DNA from: Campylobacteraceae bacterium
Lineage (GTDB): Bacteria > Campylobacterota > Campylobacteria > Campylobacterales > Sulfurovaceae
NCBI GenBank assembly: GCA_027024155.1
Contig: JALVTE010000076.1
Location: 35,301 to 99,300 of the forward strand
Length of the DNA: 64,000 nt
Direction of reading: 5' to 3'
The position numbers were made by a program, and so were the translations under genes. Within the stretch, counting starts at the first letter, position 1. Every line of letters begins with the position of its first letter. The notes under the pieces were generated by a model, which was given only the letters and a program-made list of their open reading frames with translations, ran no database searches and was not told where the DNA came from. Positions 10,032 to 63,236 of this stretch are shown here, one piece after another.

Positions 10032-10067
10032 CATTTACATTCTGGATCTTCAAATATTTATCTACAC

Positions 10068-10174: not shown

Positions 10175-10209
10175 TGAAAGTATTTTTATAGCAGATATTT
10201 GTTACTTTT

Positions 10210-10236
10210 GCAAAAAAGGTAATCTCTAATTACCTT
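10210..10236 (-). terminator. rho-independent terminator after the ABC-F gene
   Basis: 8-bp stem AAGGTAAT/ATTACCTT with a 5-nt loop. On the minus strand it is followed by TTTTTTG. Confidence 0.5.
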
Positions 10237-10254
10237 GTCTTTAAAATTCAGCAA

Positions 10255-16200: not shown

Positions 16201-16255
16201 TAAATAACCTAATTTTTTTGGTAGAATATTATATCTAAAAAATACAAAGGCAATA

Positions 16256-40097: not shown

Positions 40098-40278
40098 AAC
40101 CTCTCCTAAATAAAAATTGTAGCGATTATACCAAATTGTAACTAAAGAGGCTCTAAATATAAAGCTTTAAAATGCAAATTAGGTTACAATTTGTTAAGTT
40201 ATAAATAATCGATAGTTATATATGTTACCAAAGGTAATATTATCACCTCTCACTACCCACTACCACCTAATCACTAAA

Positions 40279-41025: not shown

Positions 41026-41026
41026 T

Positions 41027-44149: not shown

Positions 44150-44317
44150 TTTTAACCTTTATATATAAAATATTACTCAACATAGAATATGTTAAAAAAC
44201 TTTAGTTACCTATAATTTTTTACAACATCTAGTACAGAGAAAATCCAATTTTTGTGTATTATATTCTTTTAAATTATATTTCTAATAAATTAAAAAACTG
44301 TACAGAGTGATTAAGTT

Positions 44318-47545: not shown

Positions 47546-47791
47546 ATGACCAATACACAAAATAGCAGAATTACAGTAACTCTACCAAAATATATAAACG
47601 ACGAACTTGATGCTTCTAAAAAAGAGTTGGGCTATACAAAAACAGAGATAATAAAAATAGCAATAGAGAATTTCTTAGAAGAGCAAAAAAAAGCAAAACT
47701 CAAAAATGCCGTTGAATTAATGACTAATGAGTATCAAAACAATAAAGAGCTTACTGAGTTTACAACTTTAGATAGCGAAGATTTTCTATGA
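47546..47791 (+). CDS. ribbon-helix-helix antitoxin
   Basis: 81 aa. Has RHH-like ITVTLPKYINDELD...TKTEIIKIAIENFL and overlaps the toxin start by 4 nt. Confidence 0.7.
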   Translation: MTNTQNSRITVTLPKYINDELDASKKELGYTKTEIIKIAIENFLEEQKKAKLKNAVELMTNEYQNNKELTEFTTLDSEDFL

Positions 47792-48123
47792 AACAAAAAG
47801 AGATATGGCTAATAAACCTCGACCCAACAATCGGAGCCGAGATTAAAAAAACAAGACCCTGCGTAATTCTAAACAGTAACTTGATTGGCAAACTACCACT
47901 TAAAATTATAGCCCCAATTACAGACTTTAAAGCACAATACGAAACAGTACCATGGATGGTAAAACTAATCCCAAATAAAGATAACAATTTAACAAAACAA
48001 TCTGTAATAGACCTTTTTCAAGTACGCTCTGTTTCCGAAAAAAGATTAATTAAAAAGATAGGTACAATCAATAACGAAAACCTAAAAAAATGCAAAGAGG
48101 CACTAAACATAGTTTTCGATTAG
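47788..48123 (+). CDS. mazF: MazF/PemK family toxin (endoribonuclease)
   Basis: 111 aa. Has KQKEIWLINLDPTIGAEIKKTRPCVILN, typical of MazF/PemK. Confidence 0.8.
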   Translation: MKQKEIWLINLDPTIGAEIKKTRPCVILNSNLIGKLPLKIIAPITDFKAQYETVPWMVKLIPNKDNNLTKQSVIDLFQVRSVSEKRLIKKIGTINNENLKKCKEALNIVFD

Positions 48124-48148
48124 AAGATTCAGTATATTTTTACTATCT

Positions 48149-48469
48149 CTAGCACTCAAACTTCTGACATATATCTTTTAGAATCTTCTTAAAAGTTATA
48201 TCTTTTAAAGTAGCTATAATATTTTTATCAGATATTAAAGAGGAATCGATTGCCGTTAACTTTGGTACAATCACAACAGACTCTTTTTTTAATGAACCGG
48301 TTTCAATATCACTATTTGTAATAATAATACCATCTCTTTTTAAATTTGTTGTAAGGGGTAAAATTAGTAAATCATTTTTGTCTATCACTCTAAATACTAA
48401 TACAGGTCGTCCTTTAAACTGCTTAAAATCAGAATATGGCATCTCAATAAAATATATACCACCTACCAT
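48149..48469 (-). CDS. second PemK/MazF-like toxin
   Basis: 106 aa. Has GGIYFIEMPY...KGRPVLVFRV...ILPLTTN. Confidence 0.6.
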   Translation of the reverse strand: MVGGIYFIEMPYSDFKQFKGRPVLVFRVIDKNDLLILPLTTNLKRDGIIITNSDIETGSLKKESVVIVPKLTAIDSSLISDKNIIATLKDITFKKILKDICQKFEC

Positions 48470-48759
48470 TTGGAGTAATCCTCATTATCGTAATCATTTT
48501 TACTTAAGCCAATAGCAATTTTGCCAAAATTATCTAACTCTTTATCTTTCCAATATTCCCATTTTGAGTTATTGGATTCTTCTTCTATTCTCTTTAAACG
48601 ACTATACTCTTCTGTAGATAATACCACTACTTCTAAACGATTATTTTTCAAAATACCAATTTTTTCAATGCTATTGTTTTTAACATCTTTTAAAAGGGTA
48701 CTTATCTTCTTGGTAAAGTCAGTTATAGAAAATAGTTCATTTTCTGAATATTTAACCAT
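48463..48759 (-). CDS. Phd/YefM-like antitoxin
   Basis: 98 aa. Has an N-terminal FSITDFTKKISTLLKDV...VVVLSTEEYSRL and overlaps the toxin start. Confidence 0.55.
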   Translation of the reverse strand: MVKYSENELFSITDFTKKISTLLKDVKNNSIEKIGILKNNRLEVVVLSTEEYSRLKRIEEESNNSKWEYWKDKELDNFGKIAIGLSKNDYDNEDYSKW

Positions 48760-49305: not shown

Positions 49306-51649
49306 AGCGAAGTCCCCTTAAATCGGGTGGGTTTTGTAATAAAAAATACTTTTGGAATGTAATTGAGGTGACTATTGTTTCAATCCCCTTAAATCGGGTC
49401 GGTTTTGTAATAGTGGATTGGCTAAGAATTAATAACTATTTTTTCTTTGGTTTCAATCCCCTTAAATCGGGTCGGTTTTGTAATGCTAAATGATAAGTTG
49501 CAGAGTATAGAGAAGTTGGTTTCAATCCCCTTAAATCGGGTCGGTTTTGTAATAAATTTGGAAAAGTAAACAAAGGAAAGAGAGTAAAGGTTTGTTTCAA
49601 TCCCCTTAAATCGGGTCGGTTTTGTAATACCCACATAAAGGCGAGCAAGGAGGGCTTAAATTCTGTTTCAATCCCCTTAAATCGGGTCGGTTTTGTAATA
49701 ATTATTGAGCTATTAGAAGGAAAGTTTAAATTGTTTCAATCCCCTTAAATCGGGTCGGTTTTGTAATCATGAAAAGAGTAATTGGGAGAGTTAGGTTTTA
49801 GTTTCAATCCCCTTAAATCGGGTCGGTTTTGTAATATACTCCATGTGAACCAGCACTACTAACATTAGCAGGTTTCAATCCCCTTAAATCGGGTCGGTTT
49901 TGTAATGTGCTTATTTTAGCAACCCATATCAACAGCTATTGTTTCAATCCCCTTAAATCGGGTCGGTTTTGTAATAATGTTATGTTGCAAAAAGAGACGA
50001 TACATTGATCAGTTTCAATCCCCTTAAATCGGGTCGGTTTTGTAATGGCATGTAGTGTCAAAAGCACCAAGAACATTTGTTAAGTTTCAATCCCCTTAAA
50101 TCGGGTCGGTTTTGTAATGCAGGATGGACTGAAATATCAGGAAAATTAATTTAGTTTCAATCCCCTTAAATCGGGTCGGTTTTGTAATTAAAAAGGTCAA
50201 TGTTTTAAGGATACAGCCAACATCGTTTCAATCCCCTTAAATCGGGTCGGTTTTGTAATTAGTGAAGGACTGATTGAAAAAGAGTTCTTTGAGAAGTTTC
50301 AATCCCCTTAAATCGGGTCGGTTTTGTAATTAATGTGCCTGATTGCTAATCAGTGGCTGGGTCAAGTTTCAATCCCCTTAAATCGGGTCGGTTTTGTAAT
50401 TTATAACATATAAAGATTATGTTTATCTTTATAGAAGTTTCAATCCCCTTAAATCGGGTCGGTTTTGTAATTAAGTGTGGTGAGGCATCTAAATTAGAAC
50501 TTGAGTGGTTTCAATCCCCTTAAATCGGGTCGGTTTTGTAATAAACATTGGGGAAGTCAGTATTGGTGGGTCATCGAGTTTCAATCCCCTTAAATCGGGT
50601 CGGTTTTGTAATTGATGGATTAGATAATGACGGAAAAGTGTCTAGGTTTCAATCCCCTTAAATCGGGTCGGTTTTGTAATTAATAGGCTCAAATTAAGGG
50701 ATTATTAAGCTGTTTCAATCCCCTTAAATCGGGTCGGTTTTGTAATGTTCCAAATAGACTCTCAAATGCACTATCACCTGGTTTCAATCCCCTTAAATCG
50801 GGTCGGTTTTGTAATATGATATATTGTATTATAAAAAGGATTTAATTAGTTTCAATCCCCTTAAATCGGGTCGGTTTTGTAATTTAAAAAGAGTAAGTTT
50901 TATACTTCATTAGAAAGTGTTTCAATCCCCTTAAATCGGGTCGGTTTTGTAATATATTGTAGATGGTAAAGGGGAAGAAGAAGGGCAGTTTCAATCCCCT
51001 TAAATCGGGTCGGTTTTGTAATAAAAGGCATAAATGAAAGTTTTAAGTTTATTTGTTTCAATCCCCTTAAATCGGGTCGGTTTTGTAATCTATTCAAAAA
51101 AAGATACAAAGGTTTAAAACCTTGTGGTTTCAATCCCCTTAAATCGGGTCGGTTTTGTAATAACATTGTGTGTCAGGAAATTGTTGATATAAAAAAGTTT
51201 CAATCCCCTTAAATCGGGTCGGTTTTGTAATTTAAAGTGCCTGCTGAAAAGCTAGAAGAATACCAGTTTCAATCCCCTTAAATCGGGTCGGTTTTGTAAT
51301 TTTATAGTGAGACTAGAATATGACAATGACTGGGTGTTTCAATCCCCTTAAATCGGGTCGGTTTTGTAATGTAGTGTATAATTAGGTATAACAAAATAGG
51401 AGTAGTTTCAATCCCCTTAAATCGGGTCGGTTTTGTAATGATAATGAGCTAGCTTGTTTCGACAAAGAAGCAGTTTCAATCCCCTTAAATCGGGTCGGTT
51501 TTGTAATCAAGCAAGGGATAGAAGCTAAGTTTAAAGTAGCCCGTTTCAATCCCCTTAAATCGGGTCGGTTTTGTAATTTAATTAAAATTAAGGTGTTCAG
51601 ATGAAACAATTATCGTTTCAATCCCCTTAAATCGGGTCGGTTTTGTAAT
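49306..51649 (-). CRISPR. CRISPR array: 33 apparently identical 35-nt repeats plus one degenerate terminal repeat, 33 spacers of 31-40 nt
   Basis: Plus-strand repeat: GTTTCAATCCCCTTAAATCGGGTCGGTTTTGTAAT. Repeat starts are 49376, 49449, 49519 ... 51615, with a period of 66-75 nt. The minus-strand reading ends in ATTGAAAC. The degenerate copy at 49306-49339 is at the end far from the cas genes. Confidence 0.97.
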
Positions 51650-51900
51650 AGTAACAATTAGTTGTTAAATAACCATTTCATCGGACTTTATTATAGGGCA
51701 AGTTTTCTTAAGTTTTGCTTTAATCTTCATAATTTGACTATTGTAAATATTTTAGTACAGTAATATGGGTATATCGATTTGATTAATAAGCTTAACTCAA
51801 TCTTAAATAAAATTAGATATTTTCCATAATATGGTATTAAATTAAAAAATCTGTATACGCATTTGAATTTTTTTATACAGAAACTTTATCTTTTTATTAT
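51650..51900 (-). promoter_or_regulatory. CRISPR leader (AT-rich), with candidate -10 TATAAT at 51690-51695 and a weak hairpin at 51851-51880
   Basis: 251-nt non-coding AT-rich stretch between the last cas-side ORF and the first repeat. Its position agrees with the repeat orientation and with the degenerate repeat lying at the opposite end. Confidence 0.6.
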
Positions 51901-52281
51901 TTATAGTGTATCTATCCCTGTTATATATTCATTTAAGTTATCTCTATTTCTATATAAAAAATCATATATTTTATATGCTTCGTATGCTTTTAGGTTTTCG
52001 TTACTTTTTTTATCGTATAAATAGCCATTTGAAGTTATAGCAATCTCTCTACTGTTGTAGTTAATTGTAGGGTAAATATCTTTATTAGGGTTTGGCTTTA
52101 AGTCGTCTCTTAGTTTATTTACGAAGTTGTAGTAGTTTCTACTTTTTTTGTTTGCTGTTTTTGGAGTCTGTTTTAAGTTTTGATTTATCTGCTTTAACTC
52201 TTTTAATATTGCAGTTAATAGTTCATTTGTTGTGTTGCTATCTGTGCTAAGTAGTTTTTCTATCTCATCTTGCAGTTTCAT
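51901..52281 (-). CDS. hypothetical protein between cas2 and the leader
   Basis: 126 aa with a strong SD (AAGGAG-N4-ATG), 9 nt after the cas2 stop. No family recognised. Confidence 0.55.
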   Translation of the reverse strand: MKLQDEIEKLLSTDSNTTNELLTAILKELKQINQNLKQTPKTANKKSRNYYNFVNKLRDDLKPNPNKDIYPTINYNSREIAITSNGYLYDKKSNENLKAYEAYKIYDFLYRNRDNLNEYITGIDTL

Positions 52282-52290
52282 AATACTCCT

Positions 52291-52563
52291 TTATAAAAAA
52301 TTGTATGGTTGCTCTAAGTTAATTGCAGATGCTAATTTTATTCCACTGTTTTTTATGTTATATACCCTTATGTCATCTTCGTTTTCATTGTAAATTTTTA
52401 ATATATTATCTAGTAGAGTTTGTAATTCATCTTTTGTGCTATTTGGGAGAAGAAAAATAGAAAATTGTATTCTTATTGCCTCTTTCTCTAGCAATTTTGC
52501 AATTTTACGAAGCCGTTTTATATTGGCTATGTCGTAGCTTATAATAAAATCATATCTGTTCAT
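52291..52563 (-). CDS. cas2: CRISPR-associated endoribonuclease Cas2 (copy b)
   Basis: 90 aa. Has the Cas2 ferredoxin-fold pattern, FIISYDIANIKRLRKIAKLLEKEAIRIQFSIF. Confidence 0.8.
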   Translation of the reverse strand: MNRYDFIISYDIANIKRLRKIAKLLEKEAIRIQFSIFLLPNSTKDELQTLLDNILKIYNENEDDIRVYNIKNSGIKLASAINLEQPYNFL

Positions 52564-52801
52564 CTGTTGGCTCTTTTAACTCTGCTTTTACATATCCATT
52601 GTGGTCTATAAAATAGATAGGAGCTATCTTTAACAACTCTATAAAAATAGTTATAGGTATTTTTACATCTCTATTTATATAAAGCTCTTTAATGAACTTT
52701 TTAGCTACTACTATATTTTCACTAGATTTTATAATTTCTATGTACTCTTTAGCCAATTTTATTTTAGCTTTTTTATCGTTTATTAGGATAATTTTCTTCA
52801 T
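52550..52801 (-). CDS. small ORF resembling a Cas1 N-terminal domain
   Basis: 83 aa. By eye, KKIILINDKKAKIK...KELYINRDVKIPITIFIELLKIAPIYFIDHNGYV aligns with the adjacent Cas1 N-terminus (IVIIDKKEAEIK...TIIIEGKTTLQTQDINRLSKNGISIILL). It overlaps both neighbouring genes. Confidence 0.35.
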   Translation of the reverse strand: MKKIILINDKKAKIKLAKEYIEIIKSSENIVVAKKFIKELYINRDVKIPITIFIELLKIAPIYFIDHNGYVKAELKEPTDEQI

Positions 52802-53661
52802 AACATACTCCTAATTAGAGTTATTGCATTTGTTATTTTTGTATCTAGTTGGGCTTGAAACTCTTGAAAATAGGGATATATACTTTTTCTATCTTCATAT
52901 TTTAAATATACTGCATCTCCTTTTTTTGTAAAACTCTCTTTGCTTAATAAGTTATTATTAAATAGTGTAAAAATAAATTGGTTAATATCTGCTCTAATAA
53001 CTTCTAGTATATCTGAAGATAGAGCATTATGGTCTCTAAATGGTCGATGCAGATAGCCAATATTTGGCTCAAATCCACTGGCTATTAGTTTAACTGTAAT
53101 AGTATGATAAAATATAGTATATAGCCACGACATAACAGCATTTAGCGGGTCTTTTGGAGGGCGTTTTGTTCGCTTATTGTTATGTAGATTTTTTGGAAAA
53201 AGTTTAAAATAGTGGCTAAAATATAGTTTAGAAAAACTACCCTCTATACCCAAAAGTTCATCTAAAGTTTTAGCACTGTTAATATTTTGCATATATCTTG
53301 ATTTGTTTAAGATGATATTGTGCTCTTTCAAATGAAGTATGTGAGCGTTTATTTTAATTTTAAGTAACTCTTTAGCTATGTTTGTTGGTTTTAGAGAAGC
53401 TCTATATTGTGAAATTTTTAAATTTGCATTTTTATTATTGTATGCACTTATAATAGATGCTACATACCTATTAGATTTTAGTAAAATTATACTAATTCCA
53501 TTTTTGCTTAAACGATTAATATCTTGTGTTTGTAGAGTTGTTTTACCCTCTATAATTATTGTATCGATTAAGTTAAATGGTATTTTTTGGGTGTTGATAA
53601 TTAACTGGCTTGTTGTTGTTTTGATTTCTGCTTCTTTTTTATCTATTATTACAATATTCAT
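52798..53661 (-). CDS. cas1: CRISPR-associated endonuclease Cas1
   Basis: 287 aa. Has LGIEGSFSKLYF, KRPPKDPLNAVMSWLY and GYLHRPFRDHNALSSDILEVIRADI, the E/H/D-E catalytic pattern. Confidence 0.9.
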   Translation of the reverse strand: MNIVIIDKKEAEIKTTTSQLIINTQKIPFNLIDTIIIEGKTTLQTQDINRLSKNGISIILLKSNRYVASIISAYNNKNANLKISQYRASLKPTNIAKELLKIKINAHILHLKEHNIILNKSRYMQNINSAKTLDELLGIEGSFSKLYFSHYFKLFPKNLHNNKRTKRPPKDPLNAVMSWLYTIFYHTITVKLIASGFEPNIGYLHRPFRDHNALSSDILEVIRADINQFIFTLFNNNLLSKESFTKKGDAVYLKYEDRKSIYPYFQEFQAQLDTKITNAITLIRSML

Positions 53662-53924
53662 ACTATTATCAACCCTTGATTAAATTTAATAAAATCTGCC
53701 CTACCAAAACATATAGGTTCATTATTAAATGGAATTATATTTATCTTATCCTCTTCTTTTATGACTCGCAATAGTTTAGATATAAGCTCTTTTAACTCTT
53801 TTTTACTAAGAGGTGCTTCTAGTGCACTTTTTTGCCCACCTAGTGCATAGGCATAGACAATTTTACGAACCCTGTATAGGCGTTTTTTATCAAAAATATC
53901 GTAGCATATTAAATAGTTTTGCAT
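53658..53924 (-). CDS. cas2: CRISPR-associated endoribonuclease Cas2 (copy a)
   Basis: 88 aa. Has YLICYDIFDKKRLYRVRKIV...GGQKSALEAPL and an ATGA overlap with cas1. Confidence 0.8.
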   Translation of the reverse strand: MQNYLICYDIFDKKRLYRVRKIVYAYALGGQKSALEAPLSKKELKELISKLLRVIKEEDKINIIPFNNEPICFGRADFIKFNQGLIIV

Positions 53925-53966: not shown

Positions 53967-54338
53967 TTACGGATTATAAATATCTTGATTAAACTCATAA
54001 TCATCATTATCACAAAAGCTATCATAATCACAAGGGTCGTAACTATTTGAATATGGATTTTCATACTCACTATAGTAGTCATCGTCGTCATCATCAAAAT
54101 AGTTATCGAAATCATCTTCGATATCCTCATCTTTATAGCTAGAGTTACAAGAGTTGTATCTATCTTTATCCCAACCTGTGTTACCCTCCCAGTATCTTCC
54201 GTTACGTTCTATTGCAGTAAAGTAAGCTTCTGGGTCATGCACAACTTCTCCATACGGAGTGTACCAAGTATTACCAATTTTAGTAGGAGTCTTTCTCCAA
54301 GGATAACGATCACTAGATTCACCAAACCAATAACCCAT
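53967..54338 (-). CDS. hypothetical Trp/Tyr-rich protein with strongly acidic Asp/Tyr/Asn tail
   Basis: 123 aa with a strong SD (AGGAGGA-N4-ATG). The C-terminal half reads DEDIEDDFDNYFDDDDDDYYSEYENPYSNSYDPCDYDSFCDNDDYEF. Confidence 0.6.
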   Translation of the reverse strand: MGYWFGESSDRYPWRKTPTKIGNTWYTPYGEVVHDPEAYFTAIERNGRYWEGNTGWDKDRYNSCNSSYKDEDIEDDFDNYFDDDDDDYYSEYENPYSNSYDPCDYDSFCDNDDYEFNQDIYNP

Positions 54339-54540: not shown

Positions 54541-54690
54541 TTAACTCCTCAAAAGCTCATTTAATTTATAAGGCTTAATATCAAGCTCAAACACAGAGTA
54601 ATTTACTCTAAACCCGTAGCCCTCTAAAAGAGTGGCTACTTTATTTCGCTTTTTTGTGTTGCTGATGTCGTAGGTTATTAGGGTTTGCAT
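54541..54690 (-). pseudogene. cas2: truncated cas2-like ORF (49 codons, N-terminal half only)
   Basis: Own translation: MQTLITYDISNTKKRNKVATLLEGYGFRVNYSVFELDIKPYKLNELLRS*. Its ATG shares one nucleotide with the TAA of the upstream RAMP gene (TAATG). It is not in the ORF track. Confidence 0.65.
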
Positions 54691-57161
54691 TAGTTTAGTA
54701 AACTATTGAACTTATCTTGCCCTAGCCATTTAATCATTAATTTACTACTTTTATTAAACTGTTTCTTCTTCTTAGCATTTAAAGTAGGATAAATTTTCTT
54801 AATTGCCTCTTCAAGCTCCTTCTTATCGTTATCCGTAGGGTTTTGAATAGATTTTATAACTCTTTCAATGCTTTTACCATCTTTAGCTTGAGAAAATTCT
54901 AACCTTTTATTATCAGTCTTAGTTACTGAGGTTCCACACATATTTTCTAACTCTTTTGTAGCATCAATAACTTTTGGAGAGTTTGGATAATCTTCTATAA
55001 ATTTCTTTAAAGCATCTTTTAAGTATTTAGAGTTACTTGGATGATGAATCTTTTCCCACTTGGTATTTGCCTCTTCTTGATTTTTTTGATTTTCTATATC
55101 TTGTATCTCATCTTTTATAATTTTAATTGCATCATTAACTTTCTCTTTTTCTTCCAAAGTTAATTCACTTTTTAAAAGGTTTTCAAGAATTTGAATATTT
55201 TTAGTTTTTTTTGCATTATTTAGATTATTTAAAAATTTTATTTTCTTATCTTCTAACTCTTTAATTTTTTTTCTTTTATCTAAAACTTCTGGTGTTAAAA
55301 GTGATACTGGATAGTTATTAGATATATCAAACATTTGACTAACTTTAGGTAGACAGTCTCTACCTACATATTCCTTATTTATCTTTTCATTTTTTGCATC
55401 TACAAATTCATTTATATTATTTTCAGGGTCTAGTTTTAAATATTTAAGTTTATTGTCTATATTTAAATCTTTAAATGACATTGTAAAAAGTTCTTTGATT
55501 TGTTCTGTTTCTAACCATTTCTTTTTTAACTTTTCAGTTGTCCACTCTTGCATTAATATTTCAAATTCTTGTAAAGCATCAATGTATTTAGAAGTATCTA
55601 AATCAATTTTTATTTTTCCAAATCCAAGTGATTTAGCCATACCTATATTGTGATAAAAGTTATTATGATTATTATGAAAAGTAAGTGCAGAAATTAATGC
55701 TCCTAATTCTGCTTTATTAAGGTTATGAAATCTAACTTTTCCACTAAAAGTAAACTCATTAAAATTATTTTTATTATATGTTCCAATAGGTGTAAATGTA
55801 GTAGCAGAATCTGTCTCTTCGTCCACTTTTGTAAATTTTGGTTTACCATATCTTAATGGATATCTTTTCCAACCTGCTATTTTAGCTGTTTTATCCATAA
55901 GGGTATTGTATTTATCATTCTGTACTTTTCCATTCTCTTTACAGTTTTGTTGTATATATTCAGGATAAAAAGATGAATTTGGGCTTCCGAGTATAGTTGT
56001 AATTCTTTCAAATTCTTTCGGATTTGAATTGCATTTAAAATGAGAAAATTGTACTCTACCTTTTAATGTACAATTTACTTTTTTAGATTTATTATCTTTT
56101 GTAATTTCTTCTTGAATTGCACCAAATATACTCTCTGTTAAATCTAATTTTTGGTATATTCTTTGTGCACCACTAACTGTTTTTGTTACTGTTTCGATAA
56201 TCTGTTTAGTAGCATCGTCAATAGTATAATTATATGCTAGTTTGAACAGCTGACTAAGTCCTATATCTGTAATATTATTATTTTTGTCCTTAATATAAAA
56301 TATTGGTATTCCTATATTTTCATCAACATTATTTTTCCAAAAACTTCCATCTACTGAGTCTGAGTTAAAATAAACATCTATAAACTTTGATACTGCTTTA
56401 TCAATATTTCTAATTAGATTTTCTTTTCTATCACTATTAGCAAAGACAAATTCATTTTTTTTGTTATCTATTCCACCAGTAAGTATTAAATACGCCTCTT
56501 CGCCATTATTTGAAACAGTTGCAATATTTTTCTTGCCAATTACTTTACCTTCGCTATTTGTTAAATCTTTAATATCTTTAATAACATTAATTATTGGATA
56601 CATACCATTTGATTCATACTTATCTTTTGCTGTATCAAAATCACAATTTATTGTTGTGTTACCAAATTCAATTATTTTATCAGTTTGGTTTGTGTATTCA
56701 ATAGTTCTTGGTTTTCCATAGTCTATAATTATCCACTCTCCATTAGTATCTTTTTTTAAAAACCCACATCCTTTAGCTGTACCGACTAACTGTTTTGAGT
56801 TTGTCATATCTCTAACAGATGTTATTTTTGTATGTTTCTTAGTATCTAATTTTAATTTTCCAAAACTCATAATTTCCAATACATTACGAACCATACCTTT
56901 TACAGAACTTCCAGGAATATAATATTGTCCCTTATGGTTACAAAATTCTGTAGAAATCATATTACCATTATTGTCTATATAATATTTATCTCCATTAATT
57001 TCATGATTACGAATAAATATAGGACTTTTAGCTGTTATAGTAATATCTATAACCCCACTTTGACTATCACTAAAAGGAACATCATGACTTACTTGTTCCG
57101 ACCAATCAGGGAACAATATCTTATCACTTAACGGTACAAAATTAAATGGTGCTGTTATCAT
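54690..57161 (-). CDS. large CRISPR-associated RAMP (Cas7-like with insertion; TIGR03986-like 'APxNFVPL' family) with ~300-aa C-terminal extension
   Basis: 823 aa. Has the N-terminus MITAPFNFVPL, the RAMP motif IPGSSVKGMVRNVLE and the Gly-rich loop SLGFGKIKI, followed by a Lys/Glu/Asn-rich tail. SD is GGAG-N7-ATG. Confidence 0.7.
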   Translation of the reverse strand: MITAPFNFVPLSDKILFPDWSEQVSHDVPFSDSQSGVIDITITAKSPIFIRNHEINGDKYYIDNNGNMISTEFCNHKGQYYIPGSSVKGMVRNVLEIMSFGKLKLDTKKHTKITSVRDMTNSKQLVGTAKGCGFLKKDTNGEWIIIDYGKPRTIEYTNQTDKIIEFGNTTINCDFDTAKDKYESNGMYPIINVIKDIKDLTNSEGKVIGKKNIATVSNNGEEAYLILTGGIDNKKNEFVFANSDRKENLIRNIDKAVSKFIDVYFNSDSVDGSFWKNNVDENIGIPIFYIKDKNNNITDIGLSQLFKLAYNYTIDDATKQIIETVTKTVSGAQRIYQKLDLTESIFGAIQEEITKDNKSKKVNCTLKGRVQFSHFKCNSNPKEFERITTILGSPNSSFYPEYIQQNCKENGKVQNDKYNTLMDKTAKIAGWKRYPLRYGKPKFTKVDEETDSATTFTPIGTYNKNNFNEFTFSGKVRFHNLNKAELGALISALTFHNNHNNFYHNIGMAKSLGFGKIKIDLDTSKYIDALQEFEILMQEWTTEKLKKKWLETEQIKELFTMSFKDLNIDNKLKYLKLDPENNINEFVDAKNEKINKEYVGRDCLPKVSQMFDISNNYPVSLLTPEVLDKRKKIKELEDKKIKFLNNLNNAKKTKNIQILENLLKSELTLEEKEKVNDAIKIIKDEIQDIENQKNQEEANTKWEKIHHPSNSKYLKDALKKFIEDYPNSPKVIDATKELENMCGTSVTKTDNKRLEFSQAKDGKSIERVIKSIQNPTDNDKKELEEAIKKIYPTLNAKKKKQFNKSSKLMIKWLGQDKFNSLLN

Positions 57162-57550
57162 TTTTCATCTCCTTGTGCAAATCCTGCAAAAACTACTTTT
57201 TTTAACTTTTTAACTAGCATATCTTCGCAAAGTTCATCACTCTCTTCTTGCCAGATTTGTTCCATTTTTACTTTGTTGCCTGCAATGCCATAGAATTTTT
57301 GAATTTCGATATTTTTTAATGAACCTCTATCTACAGCCCAACTGTTATTTGATTGTTTTATTGTTATGTATTCATTCTCATTAGCAAAGTGGGCTTCGTA
57401 AATAAAGCCAATTTCGTTATCTACTTTTGGGTCGTTATCTGTAAAAATATCTTTTGCTAAGTCTAAAGGTCTATTAGAAAACTGTACATAGCCTCTAAAG
57501 CCTTTTAAATTATTTATGTAATCTATAACCTCATCTCTATTTAATCTCAT
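57158..57550 (-). CDS. small type III-D accessory subunit (Csx19/all1473-like, tentative)
   Basis: 130 aa counted from the ATG at 57548-50, which is preceded by GGGGAGGTG. The ORF-track start at 57565 lacks an SD. The call rests on position (between the Cas7 genes) and size; the family assignment is from memory only. Confidence 0.45.
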   Translation of the reverse strand: MRLNRDEVIDYINNLKGFRGYVQFSNRPLDLAKDIFTDNDPKVDNEIGFIYEAHFANENEYITIKQSNNSWAVDRGSLKNIEIQKFYGIAGNKVKMEQIWQEESDELCEDMLVKKLKKVVFAGFAQGDEK

Positions 57551-58856
57551 ATAGCACCTCCCCATTTTTATCTAATTTACCGCTAAAAATTCCGTGTCCT
57601 TTTGTAGTTAGTCCACCTAATGCAAGTTGCCCTTTGCAAATGTCTGTTAAAGCATTTTCAAAAACTTCTATATACTCTTTATCTATATTTTTATTTAAGA
57701 TAATCTCTAAGGTATATTCTCTATCATCTGCAATAGTTTTTTCTTGAAATAGAGCCCCCTCTATTGCACCGCCAGTAAAGCGGTCTATACTAACATGGTC
57801 AAATACTTTTGTAGAATCTTTATCTTCCATAAAGCAATCACTTATATAGATATTCCCTTTTTGCCCAAGCTCATTTTTCTCTTTTAACTCTTTTTTATGA
57901 CCAAATATTGCTTTTATTGCTTCGTTATTTTCTCCTACAATATCTTCTAGCTTTTCAAAGCCTTCTTTTTTATCGGCATATCTTTTTTGCTTTAAGTTAT
58001 AATAAAATGCCGTTCTATGAGATACTGCACCTTTAATGGAAGTTGCAGGTATTAAAATTTTTCTTTTACTTAATGCATGTTCGTTGTAGTCAATTTCCTC
58101 TTCGTAAACTGGTGTCATATCTGCATCTTCATCGCCAAAGCCACTACCAAAAATAAAGAAGTCATCAGGTTTTAGTTTTAGGGTATATTTATTATACTTA
58201 TCGTAACTATCTAACTTTTTATCTGCTTTTGTAGCACTATCTATTAAAGAGTTTAAACTACTAGAGTAGCTTTTAAGTTCATCTATATTTTTAATCTCTA
58301 AAGTAGCTATATCATGCACTTTAAAACTTCCAAAACCTGCTGTGGTTTTTCCACCAAATCTAAATAGAGGATTGCTTAAAATCTCTATGAGTTCATCAAA
58401 GGCCTCTTTGTTGTCTATAACTTCTATTGCAAATCTAAAACGACTACCTTTATATACAACTTCTTGGTCAAACTTGCTACTCTCCCGTGCAACCCCTTTA
58501 TGTGTTATTGCGGTATGCTCTCTTATAGGTAGAGTTTCAAATAACTTTAAAAAACTATTTTTTTCTACCAAAAGCCCTTCATTTACTCTATTGTCTTTAT
58601 CTACCAAAAGAGCATTAGAGATAATTACTTTAGAGCCTTCCCCATCATCTTCTCTACCATTTTGATAACCAAAAATATTTTTATCTTGGCTATATAAGCT
58701 TCTTAAAACTCCTGCTATAGATGTACCTAATATCATAGGCAGAGAGTTAAAATCTCTTTGTACAGGTGCATCTTGAAAAAAGTCGCTATTTCCACACCCA
58801 ACTCTTAATGGTGTTTGTGCTTCTATTGTAATGTGTGCAATATATCTATTTTGCAT
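57537..58856 (-). CDS. fused double Cas7 (two Csm3/Cmr4-like RAMP domains)
   Basis: 439 aa. Domain 1: PLRVGCGNSDFFQDAPVQRD...ILGTSIAGVLRS...GGKTTAGFGSF. Domain 2: IPATSIKGAVSHR...IDRFTGGAIEGALF...LGGLTTKGHGIF. Confidence 0.75.
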   Translation of the reverse strand: MQNRYIAHITIEAQTPLRVGCGNSDFFQDAPVQRDFNSLPMILGTSIAGVLRSLYSQDKNIFGYQNGREDDGEGSKVIISNALLVDKDNRVNEGLLVEKNSFLKLFETLPIREHTAITHKGVARESSKFDQEVVYKGSRFRFAIEVIDNKEAFDELIEILSNPLFRFGGKTTAGFGSFKVHDIATLEIKNIDELKSYSSSLNSLIDSATKADKKLDSYDKYNKYTLKLKPDDFFIFGSGFGDEDADMTPVYEEEIDYNEHALSKRKILIPATSIKGAVSHRTAFYYNLKQKRYADKKEGFEKLEDIVGENNEAIKAIFGHKKELKEKNELGQKGNIYISDCFMEDKDSTKVFDHVSIDRFTGGAIEGALFQEKTIADDREYTLEIILNKNIDKEYIEVFENALTDICKGQLALGGLTTKGHGIFSGKLDKNGEVLYEIK

Positions 58857-60225
58857 TTTTGCCTCCTCTATCTTGAGCTTTTGGCATCTCTATTGCTACT
58901 AGCATTATAAAGTTTAAATCATTATTTAGTAGTGTTTCTTGTTGGGTTTTGCTCCATTTAGCTTTACCACTAGATATATATTTTTCTATCTCTTCTTTTT
59001 TATTTTCAAAACTACTTAAGCATATAGAGCGAATTGTTCCCCATTGTGAGTTTTTTATATCTTTATATAGAGGGATATTTTCATTGATAAATTGATATAC
59101 ACTATCAACTAAATCTAGTTTATCCAATCTGCTATTGTGCTTTGCTTTTAAGTAGTTTAAAGTATTGTCTGAAAATTCTACTTCTATTTTGCCTATTGAC
59201 TCTTTTTTATTTTTCTCTTTTTTGGGTAGCTTTATCTCTGATTCTAAAAGAAATTTTGGATTTATTAACAAATCGCCAAAACCTTCGCTTAAAAATAGAC
59301 CAACACCCTCTTTTAACTTCTCTTTTTGCTCTGAAGTTAAATTTTTTAATACAATTACACTACCTTTGTTTATAACTACTCTCTCAAATGTATGTGTTCT
59401 CATTGTATTGTTATATTGTCTATAGTTGCTTGTTTTTACCTGCATAGCTTCATATGCAATATTCTCTTTTGTTAATCCGTTAATTAAGTGTATTGGGTCA
59501 AGAGTTGGGTTTCCAGTTTCATCAATTAATGCTAATCTACTGTTTGCGTAAATATATGTTAAATTATCACTCTTTGTGCTTTCAATATTTTTTGTATTAT
59601 CTTTTGCTTGAGTAATTTTAACTTTACCATATTCGGAACTTTTAGATTTACCAAGTCTTGTAGAGTTTTCTAAAGTATCAATAATAAGTTTTATATCATC
59701 ATCTTTTATAGAGTTATCTACTTTTACTTTAAATTGCCACTTTAATCCTTTTGGCATAGCCTTATAGCCGAACATATTACCTGTTTTGCTTCTTCTTCGT
59801 TTTTTATCGTGGCTACTCTTTTGAGAATAGTTATATCTAATTTCATATAAATTTAATCCACTAGAAGTGTCAGCGTCTATGAATCCTTTTCTTAACTGCT
59901 TAAGTTGTCCTAAATTTTTATTTATTAAATGATGGTTATAAACATAAGCCTCTTCATTCTCTTTTAAAAGCTTTTTCTTAAAGTAAGAGTATGGTGTTTT
60001 GTAATATAGCTTATTGTTAATTAATAAATTTGCATCCATAAATCTAACTAAACCGCTATGGAATATATTAAAACTATCGCTAAAATCTTTATATCTTTTA
60101 GCTACCATTCCCAAGAAATTACTACCTGGAATAAACTCTAAAGGCTCTATGTTTCCTTCGGTATTAGAGCTAGCTTGTAGTACTATATCACTTAAAAACT
60201 CTATATTAAATATTAATTCTTTCAT
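58846..60225 (-). CDS. csx10: Csx10-like (Cas5-group) RAMP with helical C-terminal region
   Basis: 459 aa counted from the ATG at 60223-25 (AAGGAGG SD; TAATG overlap with the upstream gene). The N-terminus reads LEFIPGSNFLGMVAKRY. The last ~110 aa look alpha-helical. Confidence 0.55.
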   Translation of the reverse strand: MKELIFNIEFLSDIVLQASSNTEGNIEPLEFIPGSNFLGMVAKRYKDFSDSFNIFHSGLVRFMDANLLINNKLYYKTPYSYFKKKLLKENEEAYVYNHHLINKNLGQLKQLRKGFIDADTSSGLNLYEIRYNYSQKSSHDKKRRRSKTGNMFGYKAMPKGLKWQFKVKVDNSIKDDDIKLIIDTLENSTRLGKSKSSEYGKVKITQAKDNTKNIESTKSDNLTYIYANSRLALIDETGNPTLDPIHLINGLTKENIAYEAMQVKTSNYRQYNNTMRTHTFERVVINKGSVIVLKNLTSEQKEKLKEGVGLFLSEGFGDLLINPKFLLESEIKLPKKEKNKKESIGKIEVEFSDNTLNYLKAKHNSRLDKLDLVDSVYQFINENIPLYKDIKNSQWGTIRSICLSSFENKKEEIEKYISSGKAKWSKTQQETLLNNDLNFIMLVAIEMPKAQDRGGKNAK

Positions 60226-60785
60226 TATGCCTCCTTTGCCGATATACGGCATCTTCCAAGTCCTCGGTTTCTATTTAAGCCTACTCGTTTAATCATCTCT
60301 AAAGTTGATTTAACTTGCTCAAGATACTTTTGTGGAATATTTTCTATACTTCCAGATAACACTATTGGAACAACAACTTCTATCTCCCTTAAAGAGTTAT
60401 CTTTTGCAATCTTTTTCTCTTCATCTATACTTGTGGATGTAATAATTTCGTATAAGCTATCTTGCATATTGTGTTTAACTATCTCTTTTGCAATATCATC
60501 TTTTATACTTGCATTAGAAAAATAGCACTCTCCTTCTGTCTGCTTATAATTTTCATCATAACAATTATCTTTATCATCGCTACTGCCACCAAAACATATA
60601 TTTACAAAATCGCAATCTTTAAAATATTCAGCCACCTCTCTAGCTAAACCTTTTATAGTTTTACCTGGCATATATGGAAGATTGTTATTATCTTTAATAA
60701 CCATATTATCTAGTTTTGCACCTGCACTTAAGCCTGAACTTATATGCCAATAGTCTAAAAACTCTATTGTATATTCTATTCTCAT
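60225..60785 (-). CDS. small RAMP protein (Cas7/Csm3-like)
   Basis: 186 aa. Has SGLSAGAKLDNMVIKD...PYMPGKTIKGLAREV and a C-terminal VGLNRNRGLGRC Gly-rich loop. Confidence 0.65.
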   Translation of the reverse strand: MRIEYTIEFLDYWHISSGLSAGAKLDNMVIKDNNNLPYMPGKTIKGLAREVAEYFKDCDFVNICFGGSSDDKDNCYDENYKQTEGECYFSNASIKDDIAKEIVKHNMQDSLYEIITSTSIDEEKKIAKDNSLREIEVVVPIVLSGSIENIPQKYLEQVKSTLEMIKRVGLNRNRGLGRCRISAKEA

Positions 60786-62185
60786 TTTAGCTCCTCTGCT
60801 ACCGATAAAATTTGTAAAACATCATAAATTGGGGTATAGTAATTAGAATCATCTCTCTTTACAAGTAAGTTTTGACTAGACAATTTACTATCAACTCTTT
60901 TTAAAGCTTTGCTCACAATATCCCAGTTATCATCGTTTTTAGAGATTTGATTAATTCTATTTAATAATTTATTTGCATAAGCTTCGTTTTTGTGTAACTC
61001 TCCAATCCAATTTCTTAATTTACTTATTGGTGAATTATCTTGTTTGTAGAAAGATACTACTACTCTAAAGTCATTAATTTTAGGAGCTTTATCTAAATAG
61101 TATGGAGCAAAAGAGAACTTTATTGTTTTATCTTTATGGTATGCTGTTAGTTCATCTTCTTCAAACTTTTCCCAACTTTGAAAATTAGAGCTTTGGATAT
61201 TGTGAAAAATTATACAAGACTTCTCTCTTTTTGATTTATCTTTTGCTTCAGAACATAACTCTTCGGCAAGAGATACTGCATAGTGGAATGGATATTTGTC
61301 GTTACAGTATGCAATACCGGCACACGCTGTTAATTTATCTGTAAGTCCTTTTAATTCATCAATTTTAGAGGTATTCTCTTCAAAATTTTCTAAATATTTT
61401 TGTATAAAATCTAAAGCAACATCGGCATTGCATATTACAGTTAAATCATCTCCTCCCAAAATTGCTTCTCTTATTTTATCTTCGTAACCTTCTGAAGCTT
61501 TTTCGAAAGCCTCATTTGTGGCATCATCCAATTTTTTTGAGAATGAACTAATTTTACTTTTTAGCAATGGAACTAACTGTCCTAAACCATTACCATCTGC
61601 ATGAATTACTGCTATTTTATTCTTGTTATTTGATAGATTAGATATATCTTTTATCTCTTTATACGATGGATTCTCTTTTCTTTTATTATTAAACCAATTA
61701 CTATACTTTTCTTGTTTTTGTGAAGTTGATACATCAAGTTTTTCAGTCCGTTTTACATAGCTATATAGAGGTCTTGCCGTTTTGGGTGCCTGCTCTAATA
61801 TAGATATACCTAAATCCAAAGGAATAGTTGGCTTATTTCTTTGGATTTTTAAGTTATCATCTAATTTTTTGTAATCATCTTTTGTTATATCTTCTTTATT
61901 ATTTATCTCAACAACAGCTTGTGATATTGTAATACCATAAGCATTTTGCATTACATATTTTGTAAAATCTTTTACAAGTTCTTGCATCTGCTCTTTAGTA
62001 TCAAATAGAGCTTTAAAATTACCTGCTGCATTTAATATTATCTTATCCCTACTCCCAACATAATCTTCAAATTTTTTCTCTAAACTTTTAATAATTTCAC
62101 TTGCCCCAACAATATCTCTTAATTGATTGGTAGCAAAAATATACTCCTGTATCGCTTGGATACTAGCACCATATAAATATGCCAT
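60782..62185 (-). CDS. cas10: minimal Cas10 (no HD domain, GGDD palm motif present)
   Basis: 467 aa. Starts directly with the palm-type GASIQAIQEYIFATNQLRDIVGASEII. Also has IHADGNGLGQL, ILGGDDLTVIC and ACAGIAYCNDKYPF...AEELCSEAK. Only 15 nt separate it from the cas6 stop. Confidence 0.8.
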   Translation of the reverse strand: MAYLYGASIQAIQEYIFATNQLRDIVGASEIIKSLEKKFEDYVGSRDKIILNAAGNFKALFDTKEQMQELVKDFTKYVMQNAYGITISQAVVEINNKEDITKDDYKKLDDNLKIQRNKPTIPLDLGISILEQAPKTARPLYSYVKRTEKLDVSTSQKQEKYSNWFNNKRKENPSYKEIKDISNLSNNKNKIAVIHADGNGLGQLVPLLKSKISSFSKKLDDATNEAFEKASEGYEDKIREAILGGDDLTVICNADVALDFIQKYLENFEENTSKIDELKGLTDKLTACAGIAYCNDKYPFHYAVSLAEELCSEAKDKSKREKSCIIFHNIQSSNFQSWEKFEEDELTAYHKDKTIKFSFAPYYLDKAPKINDFRVVVSFYKQDNSPISKLRNWIGELHKNEAYANKLLNRINQISKNDDNWDIVSKALKRVDSKLSSQNLLVKRDDSNYYTPIYDVLQILSVAEELK

Positions 62186-62200
62186 TTATCTTCTCCTTTA

Positions 62201-63028
62201 TTAGTTTAATTCCTCAATCTCAATCTTCCCAAGCCCCATTACGGTTTGTTTGCCGACTCCTATTAGTTCGCCTAGTTTAAGTAGGCGGTAGCTCTCTTTG
62301 TCTATGTTGTTTACTGCCATTTCGCCTATTAAGCCATCTATGTTTAGAATTTGCTTTTGGCGGTTGCTTTTTCGTTTTAGCTGTTTATATTGTAAGAGTT
62401 TAAGAGTTGTGCCGATTTCTGGGGTGTAGTTTAGTTTATGTACTTTTACACCACTGTTTAACTCTTGCTCTCTTTGGTATATAGAGCGTAAAATGTCTTG
62501 TAACTCCAAATTTTCTCTTAAAAGTCTGTTTTGTTTTTTTATTCTAAGAGGTGTGAGTAATTTTATCTTAACATTTGGACAAAAGCTGTCGATTTTAAAG
62601 GCTTTTGGCTCTATTTTTAAATCTTTAAACTCTTTGTTGCTATAAATAGTTGTTTTATTTACTAAAATTTCTAAATTTTCAAATGTTAAGTTATCTTTAC
62701 CAACGCCATTTTGGGTTAGCATAGTGTGTAGGGCACTTAAAATATATGGTAACTCTTTTGTTGCTTCGTTAAATAGATATAGTCCAAAGTTGTAATTATT
62801 GCTATCTAATTTTACATCGAAACGAAAGGGGTGATAGTTGTTTTGTTTTTCGTAGAAACTGTAATATAAGCAGTTATCTTTTGCAAAACATCCTTCGCAT
62901 TTATAGCTTGGGTTTATGCAGGTTACTTTTTTGAGTGCATAACCAAAAGCTCCACGAAGCATAGAGCCTGTAAAAAAAGGTGGCTTATCTTTAGAATTTA
63001 CTTTTACTTCGATATAATGGTATTTCAT
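62201..63028 (-). CDS. cas6: Cas6-family pre-crRNA endoribonuclease
   Basis: 275 aa counted from the ATG at 63026-28 (MKYHYIEVKV). Has GSMLRGAFGYAL, a Cys cluster CxxxxxxxCxxC, and a C-terminal Gly-rich loop GVGKQTVMGLGKI. Confidence 0.65.
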   Translation of the reverse strand: MKYHYIEVKVNSKDKPPFFTGSMLRGAFGYALKKVTCINPSYKCEGCFAKDNCLYYSFYEKQNNYHPFRFDVKLDSNNYNFGLYLFNEATKELPYILSALHTMLTQNGVGKDNLTFENLEILVNKTTIYSNKEFKDLKIEPKAFKIDSFCPNVKIKLLTPLRIKKQNRLLRENLELQDILRSIYQREQELNSGVKVHKLNYTPEIGTTLKLLQYKQLKRKSNRQKQILNIDGLIGEMAVNNIDKESYRLLKLGELIGVGKQTVMGLGKIEIEELN

Positions 63029-63236
63029 TTCTATGCCTATTAATAAAATTGTATTATAGTAACATATTATATATGTGAAATTTATCAAATAGTAGCAATA
63101 TACTTATAATAATTTATAATTTAGTATTATTGCTACATTTTCTTTGCTATTTTAACTAAAGTTACACACTACCCTAGATAGATGGTTTAAAACTTGAAAC
63201 TTTTTCTATGGATTGAGAAGCAACCTATATATATTT

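Follow-up and report, generated by a model that had tools for sequence, protein, structure and literature searches.

The III-Dv complex of Synechocystis sp. PCC 6803 (pSYSA CRISPR2; PDB 8s9t/u/v/x) has been characterized by cryo-EM structures and biochemistry: its subunits occur 1:1, its crRNA is 37 nt long, it cleaves at three sites, and its cOA synthesis is switched on by the target (PMC11026444). A further III-D subclass, containing the TIGR04423 family, was described in 2018 by Shah et al. as "poorly characterized" (PMC6546367). An HD domain is present in just 3% of III-D Cas10 proteins (PMC11229360).

A III-D operon was identified on the minus strand of the window, the 64,000-nucleotide stretch of Campylobacterota DNA analysed here (Table 1). 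All seven ORFs claimed by an earlier note on this DNA are present where it placed them, in the order cas6, cas10, cas7, csx10, double cas7, TIGR04423 gene and TIGR03986 gene; the left boundary it gave, 54541, lies 149 nt beyond the last stop codon. The III-D gene order that it gave was borne out. The six effector proteins (6/6) align end-to-end with PADLOC III-D profiles of equal length at E values of 1e-24 to 1e-160, far exceeding the chance level, and for 5/6 the top solved-structure match is the counterpart chain of the Synechocystis complex 8s9t (chain C for Cas10, A for both Cas7 and Csx10, D for Cas7-2x and E for Cas7-insertion). Type III membership is indicated by a Palm/cyclase-fold Cas10 large subunit (Pfam, Foldseek, GGDD), and III-D membership by a csx10-type Cas5 (PADLOC Cas5_IIId, full length), an HD-less Cas10 of the III-D clade (Cas10d profile and model match to 8s9t_C) and a terminal Cas7 that bears a large insertion (TIGR03986). 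The genes overlap by 4, 1, 11, 14/29 and 4 nt, and AGGAG/GGAGG motifs precede five starts, in agreement with the intact operon of overlapping or Shine-Dalgarno-led junctions proposed earlier. The CRISPR array and cas2-cas1-cas2 genes sit downstream of the effector operon. The locus is very probably a complete, functional-looking III-D system of the TIGR04423/cluster-42 subclass (Campylobacterota, Bacteroidota), having the III-Dv architecture minus one fusion; its gene content, homology, domain architecture and catalytic-residue conservation are direct observations.

Table 1 Features of the III-D locus, numbered by position in the window.
Feature	Positions	Strand	Length and remarks
cas6, crRNA-processing endoribonuclease	62201-63088	-	295 aa (maximal TTG ORF)
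cas10, compact large subunit	60782-62185	-	467 aa
cas7, stand-alone backbone subunit	60225-60785	-	186 aa; catalytic Asp D26
csx10, Cas5 + C-terminal Cas11-like	58846-60225	-	459 aa
cas7-2x, two fused Cas7 domains	57537-58856	-	439 aa; catalytic Asp D29, D246
TIGR04423-family small core subunit, positional counterpart of Csx19	57158-57565	-	135 aa, or 130 aa
cas7-insertion, TIGR03986 RAMP beginning MITAPFNFVPL	54690-57161	-	823 aa
Acidic D/Y-rich ORF	53967-54338	-	123 aa
cas2 paralogue a	53658-53924	-	TIGR01573; Pfam Cas2
cas1	52798-53661	-	TIGR00287, 179.5 bits; Pfam Cas_Cas1, E 5.5e-55
Unassigned ORF between cas2 paralogue b and cas1	52550-52801		83 aa
cas2 paralogue b	52291-52563	-	PADLOC Cas2, E 1.9e-15
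AT-rich CRISPR leader	51650-51900	-	between last ORF (51901-52281) and first repeat
CRISPR array	49306-51649	-	33 identical 35-nt repeats and one degenerate terminal repeat (49306-49340)

The cas6 product was matched by the PADLOC Cas6 profile PDLC01477 (E 5.6e-50, residues 26-292) and by Pfam CRISPR_Cas6 (E 2.9e-12). Since its positional homologues measure 275-278 aa and the profile matches set in at residue 23-26, translation probably starts from the ATG at 63028, which would give a protein of 275 aa.

The Cas10 polypeptide begins at the Palm1 motif and continues through a short linker, Palm2 (GGDD 244-247) and, at the C-terminus, a Cas11-like helical domain, without an HD domain; since the HD nuclease is lacking, DNase activity of Cas10 would not be expected. 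Its identity as a Cas10 homolog, on which the earlier note depended, was confirmed by the PADLOC Cas10d profile PDLC02058 (E 2.6e-154; residues 1-465 of the protein, 1-438 of 441 in the profile), by Pfam Cas10-Cmr2_palm2 (E 6.9e-18) and by a phmmer match to 8s9t_C (E 4.5e-27) with the GGDD aligned. The AF2 model (pLDDT 85.6) returned 8s9x_C/8s9v_C as the top Foldseek match (TM 0.76-0.78) and >50 Cas10 chains among its matches, and it also matches the HD-less 8s9t_C. The description of this protein as about half the normal size holds against Csm1/Cmr2 (~750 aa) but not within its own clade. Clustering of the family at 50% identity gives 379 clusters, almost all of them 440-540 aa, and by the lengths of these homologues the short Cas10 is normal for its clade.

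A Cas10 that is purely structural, in a locus that only cleaves RNA or is decaying, would be compatible with the missing linked effector in the window and with the failure to find spacer matches, but is quite improbable given that D197 and the GGDD residues G245, D246 and D247 are invariant among 42 homologues of 51-91% identity. Every ORF is moreover intact and translationally coupled, the 33 repeats are identical, and two independent metagenomes yielded an identical Cas10 sequence.

The locus encodes one free and two fused Cas7 domains alongside Csx10 and the terminal Cas7. The stand-alone Cas7, a separate ORF overlapping csx10 by 1 nt, matches PADLOC Cas7_IIId PDLC02110 over its full length (E 1.1e-66), and in phmmer it aligned with the Cas7 domain at the N-terminus of 8s9t_A (residues 4-53), D26 pairing with D26. 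Cas7-2x matches Cas7_IIId PDLC02107 at full length (E 1e-160) and contains two stretches matched by Pfam RAMPs, in line with the two-Cas7 fusion proposed in the earlier note; its top PDB match is 8s9t_D (Cas7-2x), with D29 paired to Synechocystis D33 and D246 to D246.

Csx10 consists of a Cas5 domain (~1-332) followed by a Cas11-like five-helix bundle (~354-452). An alternative ORF from 60252 would encode 468 aa, and the family consensus begins at the ATG of the 459-aa form. The protein matches PADLOC Cas5_IIId PDLC02088 at full length (E 5.8e-131) but reaches only 24.9 bits against TIGR02674, far under the cut-off of 177. The AF2 model (pLDDT 84.5) is rich in beta strands in its N-domain and helical in its C-domain, and its top Foldseek match is 8s9t_A (Cas7-Cas5-Cas11; TM 0.60, 544 columns). 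Alignment by hhalign of the Csx10 family profile with residues 250-713 of the Synechocystis Cas7-Cas5-Cas11 gave a probability of 98.1% and reached into the Cas11 domain. There is no separate cas11 gene, as had been noted, and a Cas11-like domain is instead fused at the Csx10 C-terminus.

The small ORF scored 46.7 bits against TIGR04423 (curated cut-off 40) and E 6.3e-24 against PADLOC Csx19 PDLC01520, and it matches the PADLOC profile described as 'core gene (cas11)'. The shorter of its two lengths, 130 aa, is the gene call in an identical metagenome contig. Relatives always place this gene between cas7-2x and cas7-insertion, and by analogy with III-Dv its product may occupy the Csx19 place in the complex. 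Cas profile sets label the TIGR04423 family Csx19, a gene that many III-D systems have but not all. No similarity between the TIGR04423 protein and Synechocystis Csx19 was detected in pairwise or profile comparison, and the latter matches Csx19 profiles disjoint from those matched by the former. The adjoining Cas7-insertion scored 283.8 bits against TIGR03986 (curated cut-off 161) and E 2.2e-144 against PADLOC PDLC02108, with 8s9t_E as top PDB match. It bears an extra K/E-rich C-terminal extension of ~268 aa (54690-55493), for which the database contains just 11 homologues.

Screening of the window, which stops ~900 bp upstream of cas6, revealed no CARF, SAVED or CorA gene and none of the other known effectors that respond to a signal. 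Relatives carry csx2, csx20, WYL/WCX and faint CARF_Card1 genes and no CorA. It is conceivable, although doubtful, that the TIGR04423 protein is a structurally distinct, non-homologous replacement of Csx19 and that the compact Cas10 of this clade signals to effectors yet unrecognised, one hint being the Fic-domain genes that lie within the operon in some relatives; if so, the subclass would merit its own named III-D variant and would hold new ancillary biology.

Signalling by SAM-AMP as in III-D2 (Gammaproteobacteria bacterium HyVt-522), rather than by cOA, was also considered. The III-D2 Cas10 is likewise compact and HD-less with a Cas11-like C-terminus and makes SAM-AMP and SAM-AMP2, and III-D2 also resembles the locus in having Cas7 domains fused and an insertion in its terminal Cas7 (PMC13294483); the window, as stated, contains no CARF effector. 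However, the Cas7x3 and Cas7-5 fusions, csx19 absence, GGDE motif, CorA and TA module, single cleavage site and SAM-AMP signalling of III-D2 (PMC13294483) are unseen at the locus, which has a gene labelled Csx19 in Cas profile sets and GGDD. The nearest structure is that of the cOA-producing III-Dv Cas10 (PMC11026444), and the effector genes of the relatives differ from CorA, making this reading very improbable. Assignment to III-D2 itself was rejected on the lack of the Cas7x3/Cas7-5 fusions at the locus and of CorA in the window.

The array repeat is ATTACAAAACCGACCCGATTTAAGGGGATTGAAAC (35 nt), with the 3' end ATTGAAAC as the expected 8-nt 5' tag, and the degenerate repeat lies at the end opposite the leader. 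There are 33 spacers, of which the 32 between identical repeats are 31-40 nt long. Comparison of the spacers with phage records and IMG/VR contigs gave 0 matches, and thus no direct evidence of recent activity at the locus. The two cas2 paralogues are 33% identical to each other, and paralogue a is 53% identical to a gene adjoining the Sulfurospirillum diekertiae locus. The D/Y-rich ORF upstream of them had no family match in NCBIfam, Pfam or PADLOC and no counterpart at related loci, and is possibly not a true gene.

Stoichiometry, crRNA length, cleavage and signalling can be proposed for the locus from the III-Dv work. Minus-strand transcription of the array would start from the leader, and Cas6 would cut the repeat 8 nt before the spacer to leave the 5' tag AUUGAAAC. 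Single copies of Csx10 (Cas5-Cas11), the TIGR04423 protein, Cas10, Cas7, Cas7-2x and Cas7-insertion would then join a crRNA of fixed length, ~37 nt. The tag end would be occupied by the small protein together with Cas10 and Cas5; the backbone would consist of the three catalytic Cas7 domains, and Cas7-insertion would cap the crRNA 3' end. Complementary RNA would be cut by D26 (Cas7) and by D29 and D246 (Cas7-2x) at three sites ~6 nt apart. A target 3' flank unpaired with the tag would switch on the Cas10 Palm domains (D197, GGDD 244-247), and the activated Cas10 would produce a second messenger of nucleotide type, with cyclic oligoadenylate the likeliest candidate. Spacers would be acquired by Cas1 and the two Cas2 paralogues.

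At least 7 further genomes or contigs have the same operon, and its gene order is seen in many Campylobacterota, as well as in the cultured S. diekertiae and on a plasmid of Persicobacter. The plasmid-borne locus of the bacteroidete Persicobacter psychrovividus (pPP6, NZ_AP025298.1) carries cas6, cas10, a 186-aa RAMP, a 478-aa Csx10-like gene, a double RAMP, TIGR04423 and TIGR03986, split as in the present locus and sharing its best PADLOC profiles; its Cas10 (548 aa) is 32% identical, and it additionally carries csx20, csx2 and a CRISPR-associated PrimPol. As in the family of Shah et al., where the small core gene always lies within the III-D cassette, the locus is the same in kind and a further member of that subclass; those authors inferred that the small protein is a Cas11 analogue (PMC6546367), whereas here a Cas11-like domain is fused to Csx10.

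The earlier note suggested an under-described intermediate or variant subtype. A new type III subtype or variant, forming an unrecognised step in the fusion series toward single-protein effectors, could draw on the three proteins missed by NCBIfam and on a small subunit without detectable relation to Csx19, and is nevertheless quite improbable: a III-D profile equal in length is already available for each protein, the subclass has been on record since 2018 (PMC6546367), the Cas10 family is large (the 379 clusters above), the gene order recurs in cultured S. diekertiae and P. psychrovividus, and a single gene boundary separates the locus from III-Dv. By HMM the locus is essentially a catalogued III-D one whose domains are of ordinary size, the outcome that the note itself had named as counting against its proposal. 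The locus is thus another case of a catalogued, little-studied III-D subclass close to III-Dv, and no new subtype. What does remain under-described is its treatment in the record. NCBIfam models fail to detect the Cas10, Cas7 and Csx10 of this clade, and RefSeq consequently labels them hypothetical; a 2024 census left out loci with Cas10 <500 aa (PMC11229360); and no experimental study of the TIGR04423/cluster-42 subclass was found in the searched literature. Since NCBI models miss these proteins and at least one census drops the short Cas10, such loci are under-counted. The locus adds an intact case to a subclass widespread in Campylobacterota and Bacteroidota and does not alter how type III systems are presently understood.

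Among other subtypes, III-D1, in which each subunit has a gene of its own, cas11 and four cas7 among them, is ruled out by the Cas5-Cas11 and Cas7-2x fusions. [quoted passage not shown] In III-E the effector, Cas7-11 (gRAMP), is a single polypeptide, and Cas10 and Cas5 are lacking; weak profile and structure matches to it come from the Cas7-2x and Cas7-insertion domains, but gRAMP scores fall far under cut-off and the presence of six distinct effector genes, cas10 and csx10 among them, rules it out.

Compared with Synechocystis III-Dv, the proteins are only about 19-28% identical, yet the order cas10, [cas7, cas5, cas11], cas7-2x, small subunit and TIGR03986 cas7-insertion is shared, as are the HD-less GGDD Cas10, the cas7-2x double fusion and three catalytic Cas7 aspartates at aligned positions. 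The systems differ in Cas10 length (467 versus 558 aa), in the small subunit (TIGR04423-type, 135 aa, versus Csx19, 186 aa), in the best Cas10/Cas5 PADLOC profiles (PDLC02058/02088 versus PDLC00919/02057/02091), in the upstream cas6 within the operon, found only at the present locus, and in the Csm6, Csx1 and csx2 genes, adjacent only in Synechocystis. The III-Dv cas7-cas5-cas11 triple fusion is absent, the fusion here being Cas5-Cas11 only: Cas7 has its own 186-aa gene, whereas in Synechocystis it forms the N-terminus of a 791-aa Cas7-Cas5-Cas11. With Cas7 free, the locus is III-Dv with one fusion fewer. This fusion state, with Cas7 free and Cas5-Cas11 and Cas7-Cas7 fused, falls between III-D1 and III-Dv and illustrates the stepwise rise of fusions en route to single-protein type III effectors.

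All six effector proteins encoded by the minus-strand operon were matched end to end by III-D profiles in PADLOC-DB, the source of subtype-specific Cas profiles, and the profile lengths are close to those of the proteins; the locus is accordingly assigned to type III-D. The seven ORFs that an earlier note had read from sequence alone as a reduced, fusion-rich III-D-like operon were all found in the window and are listed in the table below. The overlapping junctions and strong Shine-Dalgarno sequences described there were likewise confirmed, with overlaps of 1–29 nt at the gene junctions and AGGAG or GGAGG upstream of five of the starts. The true start of cas6 is probably the ATG at 63028, giving a 275-aa protein, since homologues are 275–278 aa long and profile matches begin at residue 23–26.

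Coordinates of the effector operon, its PADLOC-DB profile matches, neighbouring features in the window, and Fic-domain genes in three related loci from other genomes or contigs (L005, L006, L007)
Feature	Position	Strand	Product or content	Profile	Profile positions	E-value
cas6	62201–63088	minus	295 aa as maximal TTG ORF			
cas10	60782–62185	minus	467 aa	Cas10d PDLC02058	441	2.6e-154
cas7	60225–60785	minus	186 aa	Cas7_IIId PDLC02110	171	1.1e-66
csx10-like	58846–60225	minus	459 aa	Cas5_IIId PDLC02088	439	5.8e-131
cas7-2x (double RAMP)	57537–58856	minus	439 aa	Cas7_IIId PDLC02107	426	1e-160
Small ORF (TIGR04423)	57158–57565	minus	135 aa (an alternative gene call gives 130 aa)	Csx19 PDLC01520	123	6.3e-24
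cas7-insertion RAMP	54690–57161	minus	823 aa, N-terminus MITAPFNFVPL	Cas7_IIId PDLC02108	540	2.2e-144
C-terminal extension of Cas7-insertion	54690–55493		~268 aa, K/E-rich			
123-aa ORF	53967–54338		between effector operon and cas2; highly acidic, D/Y-rich			
cas2-cas1-cas2	52291–53924		cas1 between two cas2 genes			
83-aa ORF	52550–52801		between cas1 and second cas2			
126-aa ORF	51901–52281		adjoins leader	no family profile match		
Toxin-antitoxin genes	47788–48759		two MazF/PemK-type toxins, Phd/YefM-type antitoxin			
Flanking genes	39363–47005		polA, fused ResB/CcsA-type cytochrome c assembly gene, DUF2400, ATP synthase subunit a			
Fic-domain gene	L005:14794–15576					
Fic-domain genes	L006:14541–15308 and 15684–16466					
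Fic-domain genes	L007:8513–9280 and 9656–10438					

Of the NCBIfam models, two scored above their own cut-offs and no others did: TIGR03986 (283.8 bits; threshold 161) and TIGR04423 (46.7 bits; threshold 40). Cas10, Cas7 and Csx10 (the Cas5-type protein) scored far under the Csm1/Cmr2, Csm3 and Csx10 cut-offs, which is why RefSeq labels their homologues as hypothetical. A survey of type III systems published in 2024 also left out Cas10 proteins shorter than 500 aa (PMC11229360), and for both reasons loci of this kind are likely under-counted. A reading of the PADLOC label “Cas10d” as the type I-D large subunit was rejected, as these profiles span 441–462 positions and are matched by the III-D Cas10 of Synechocystis. 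The earlier note had named a profile search as the check that could refute its proposal of a possibly new variant. That search placed the proteins in catalogued III-D with lengths close to the profiles, and the proposal is not supported, given that length-matched III-D profiles exist and that the subclass was described previously by Shah et al. 2018 (PMC6546367).

The AlphaFold2 model of Cas10 (mean pLDDT 85.6, pTM 0.86) was most similar to the Cas10 chains of the Synechocystis sp. PCC 6803 III-Dv complex (PDB 8s9t/u/v/x; TM-score 0.76–0.78, E ~3e-26), with Csm1 and Cmr2 ranking well behind (TM ~0.5–0.66). The protein starts directly at the Palm1 motif and therefore contains no HD domain, and the HDD triplet of Synechocystis Cas10 is not kept in a pairwise alignment. 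An HD domain occurs in only 3% of III-D Cas10 proteins (PMC11229360), most of which lack it (PMC11026444). The inter-Palm region is short, the GGDD of Palm2 at 244–247 aligned to that of Synechocystis, and the last 130 residues form a helical region with weak similarity to Cas11. Residues D197, G245, D246 and D247 are invariant in 42 homologues (51–91% identical). Subtypes III-H, III-G and III-I, considered in view of the short Cas10, were ruled out because this cyclase motif is intact. At 467 aa the protein is indeed small, as had been remarked, but its length is typical of its own clade: the best 120 database homologues are 455–512 aa long, and when 1.84 billion representatives were searched exhaustively, 379 clusters were recovered at E <= 1e-30, with lengths of 440–540 aa in nearly every case.

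The absence of a separate cas11 gene is accounted for by Csx10, whose C-terminal five-helix bundle is Cas11-like by fold and by collinearity with a Synechocystis fusion protein. In the model (pLDDT 84.5), a beta-rich domain (1–332) is joined to the bundle (354–452) by a low-confidence linker. Its top structural match was the Synechocystis Cas7-Cas5-Cas11 chain (TM 0.60 over 544 alignment columns), and stand-alone Cas5 proteins reached only ~0.35–0.45 over ~350 columns. The family profile (46 homologues) is collinear with residues 250–713 of the 791-aa fusion chain (hhalign probability 98.1%), in an alignment that crosses the Cas5-Cas11 linker, K602–T624 in Synechocystis (10.1101/2022.06.13.496011), and reaches the Cas11 domain. 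The C-terminal domain alone matched no Cas11 profile, which leaves the fold and the collinear alignment as the grounds for calling it Cas11. The 186-aa Cas7 aligned to the Cas7 domain at the N-terminus of this fusion chain, D26 on D26; Cas7 and Csx10 are thus the unfused equivalent of Synechocystis Cas7-Cas5-Cas11. The fusion of two further Cas7 genes in Cas7-2x was upheld by the full-length PDLC02107 match. In this protein, D29 aligned to the catalytic D33 of Synechocystis and D246 to D246.

The TIGR04423 protein has its label and operon position in common with Csx19. Neither phmmer, BLASTP nor hhalign (probability 0.2%) linked it to Csx19 of the Synechocystis locus (L011:16595–17155). Proteins labelled “Csx19” form two groups with disjoint profile sets and no cross-matches, a TIGR04423 type of ~130 aa (window, Persicobacter) and a Synechocystis type of 186 aa. 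The extension of Cas7-insertion, past the TIGR03986 profile, is rare, being common to only 11 database proteins; it is 45% identical in one related locus (L010) and absent from the 687-aa Sulfurospirillum diekertiae homologue.

The exact Cas10 sequence was found in two metagenome assemblies, one with the same six-gene operon, and among genomes a Nitratifractor MAG came nearest (~90% identity); a scan of genome contigs with one Cas10 query returned only two fragments, from one Nitratifractor MAG, and related loci were traced through contigs encoding homologues instead. The order cas6, cas10, cas7, csx10, cas7-2x, TIGR04423, cas7-insertion recurs in Campylobacterota MAGs, in the complete Sulfurospirillum diekertiae genome and on plasmid pPP6 of Persicobacter psychrovividus (Bacteroidota), where Cas10 is 32% identical. 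The top-scoring profiles are the same for Persicobacter and the window; those for Synechocystis form a sister set. No known signal-responsive effector was detected in the window, which ends ~900 bp beyond cas6. Loci of relatives contain csx2, csx20, WYL/WCX, MJ1673, a faint CARF_Card1 match and, in some, Fic genes; tblastn found none of the relatives' MJ1673, WYL/WCX, CARF-like, Fic, PIN or 450–509-aa proteins in the window. Within the effector operon of three related loci, the TIGR04423 gene is flanked by one or two Fic-domain genes (255–260 aa), which hints at a possible type III ancillary component not recognised so far. In the literature searched, no paper connected Fic with type III systems, one paper containing both terms being left aside.

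Downstream of the effector operon, and outside the gene list of the earlier note, lie the 123-aa ORF, cas2, cas1, the 83-aa ORF, a second cas2, the 126-aa ORF, an AT-rich leader and the CRISPR array. The 123-aa ORF, with no family profile match and no counterpart in related loci, may be spurious. The two Cas2 paralogues are diverged (33% identity), and the 83-aa ORF was examined and rejected as a Cas1 N-terminal remnant. The array has 33 spacers and 33 identical repeats of 35 nt, closed by a single degenerate repeat; the 32 spacers between identical repeats are 31–40 nt long. The repeat terminus ATTGAAAC and the degenerate repeat at the far end indicate that the array and the cas genes share one reading direction. 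These 32 spacers, concatenated, gave no blastn match among 50,697 phage records, nor did three spacer cores scanned against IMG/VR. Toxin-antitoxin genes are positional neighbours of the array, directly past its trailer end; by way of comparison, such a module is typical of III-D2 loci. Since the genes flanking the locus are chromosomal housekeeping genes, the locus is chromosomal, in a genome of ~31% GC.

The observations made here concern which genes are present, their homology, their folds and their conserved residues; the mechanism is inferred from III-Dv by homology. Cas6 would yield crRNAs with a AUUGAAAC tag, and the six proteins, one copy each, would form a complex on a fixed-length crRNA. 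Bound RNA would be cut by three Cas7 aspartates, and a non-self 3' flank would switch on the Cas10 Palm domains to produce a second messenger, most likely cOA, the synthesis of which was demonstrated for III-Dv (PMC11026444). No HD nuclease activity would be expected.

Three III-D architectures have been described (10.1101/2022.06.13.496011, PMC11026444, PMC13294483). Every gene is separate in III-D1; III-D2 has cas7-5 and cas7x3 fusions, no csx19, a CorA effector and SAM-AMP signalling; and III-Dv has cas7-cas5-cas11 and cas7-2x fusions, csx19 and cas7-insertion. The window locus is a further member of a catalogued III-D subclass, for which the literature searched gave no experimental study, and is architecturally III-Dv-like. 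In keeping with the fusion-rich reading, the cas5-cas11 and cas7-2x fusions are present in both the window and III-Dv, whereas cas7 is free in the window, which thus has one fusion fewer.
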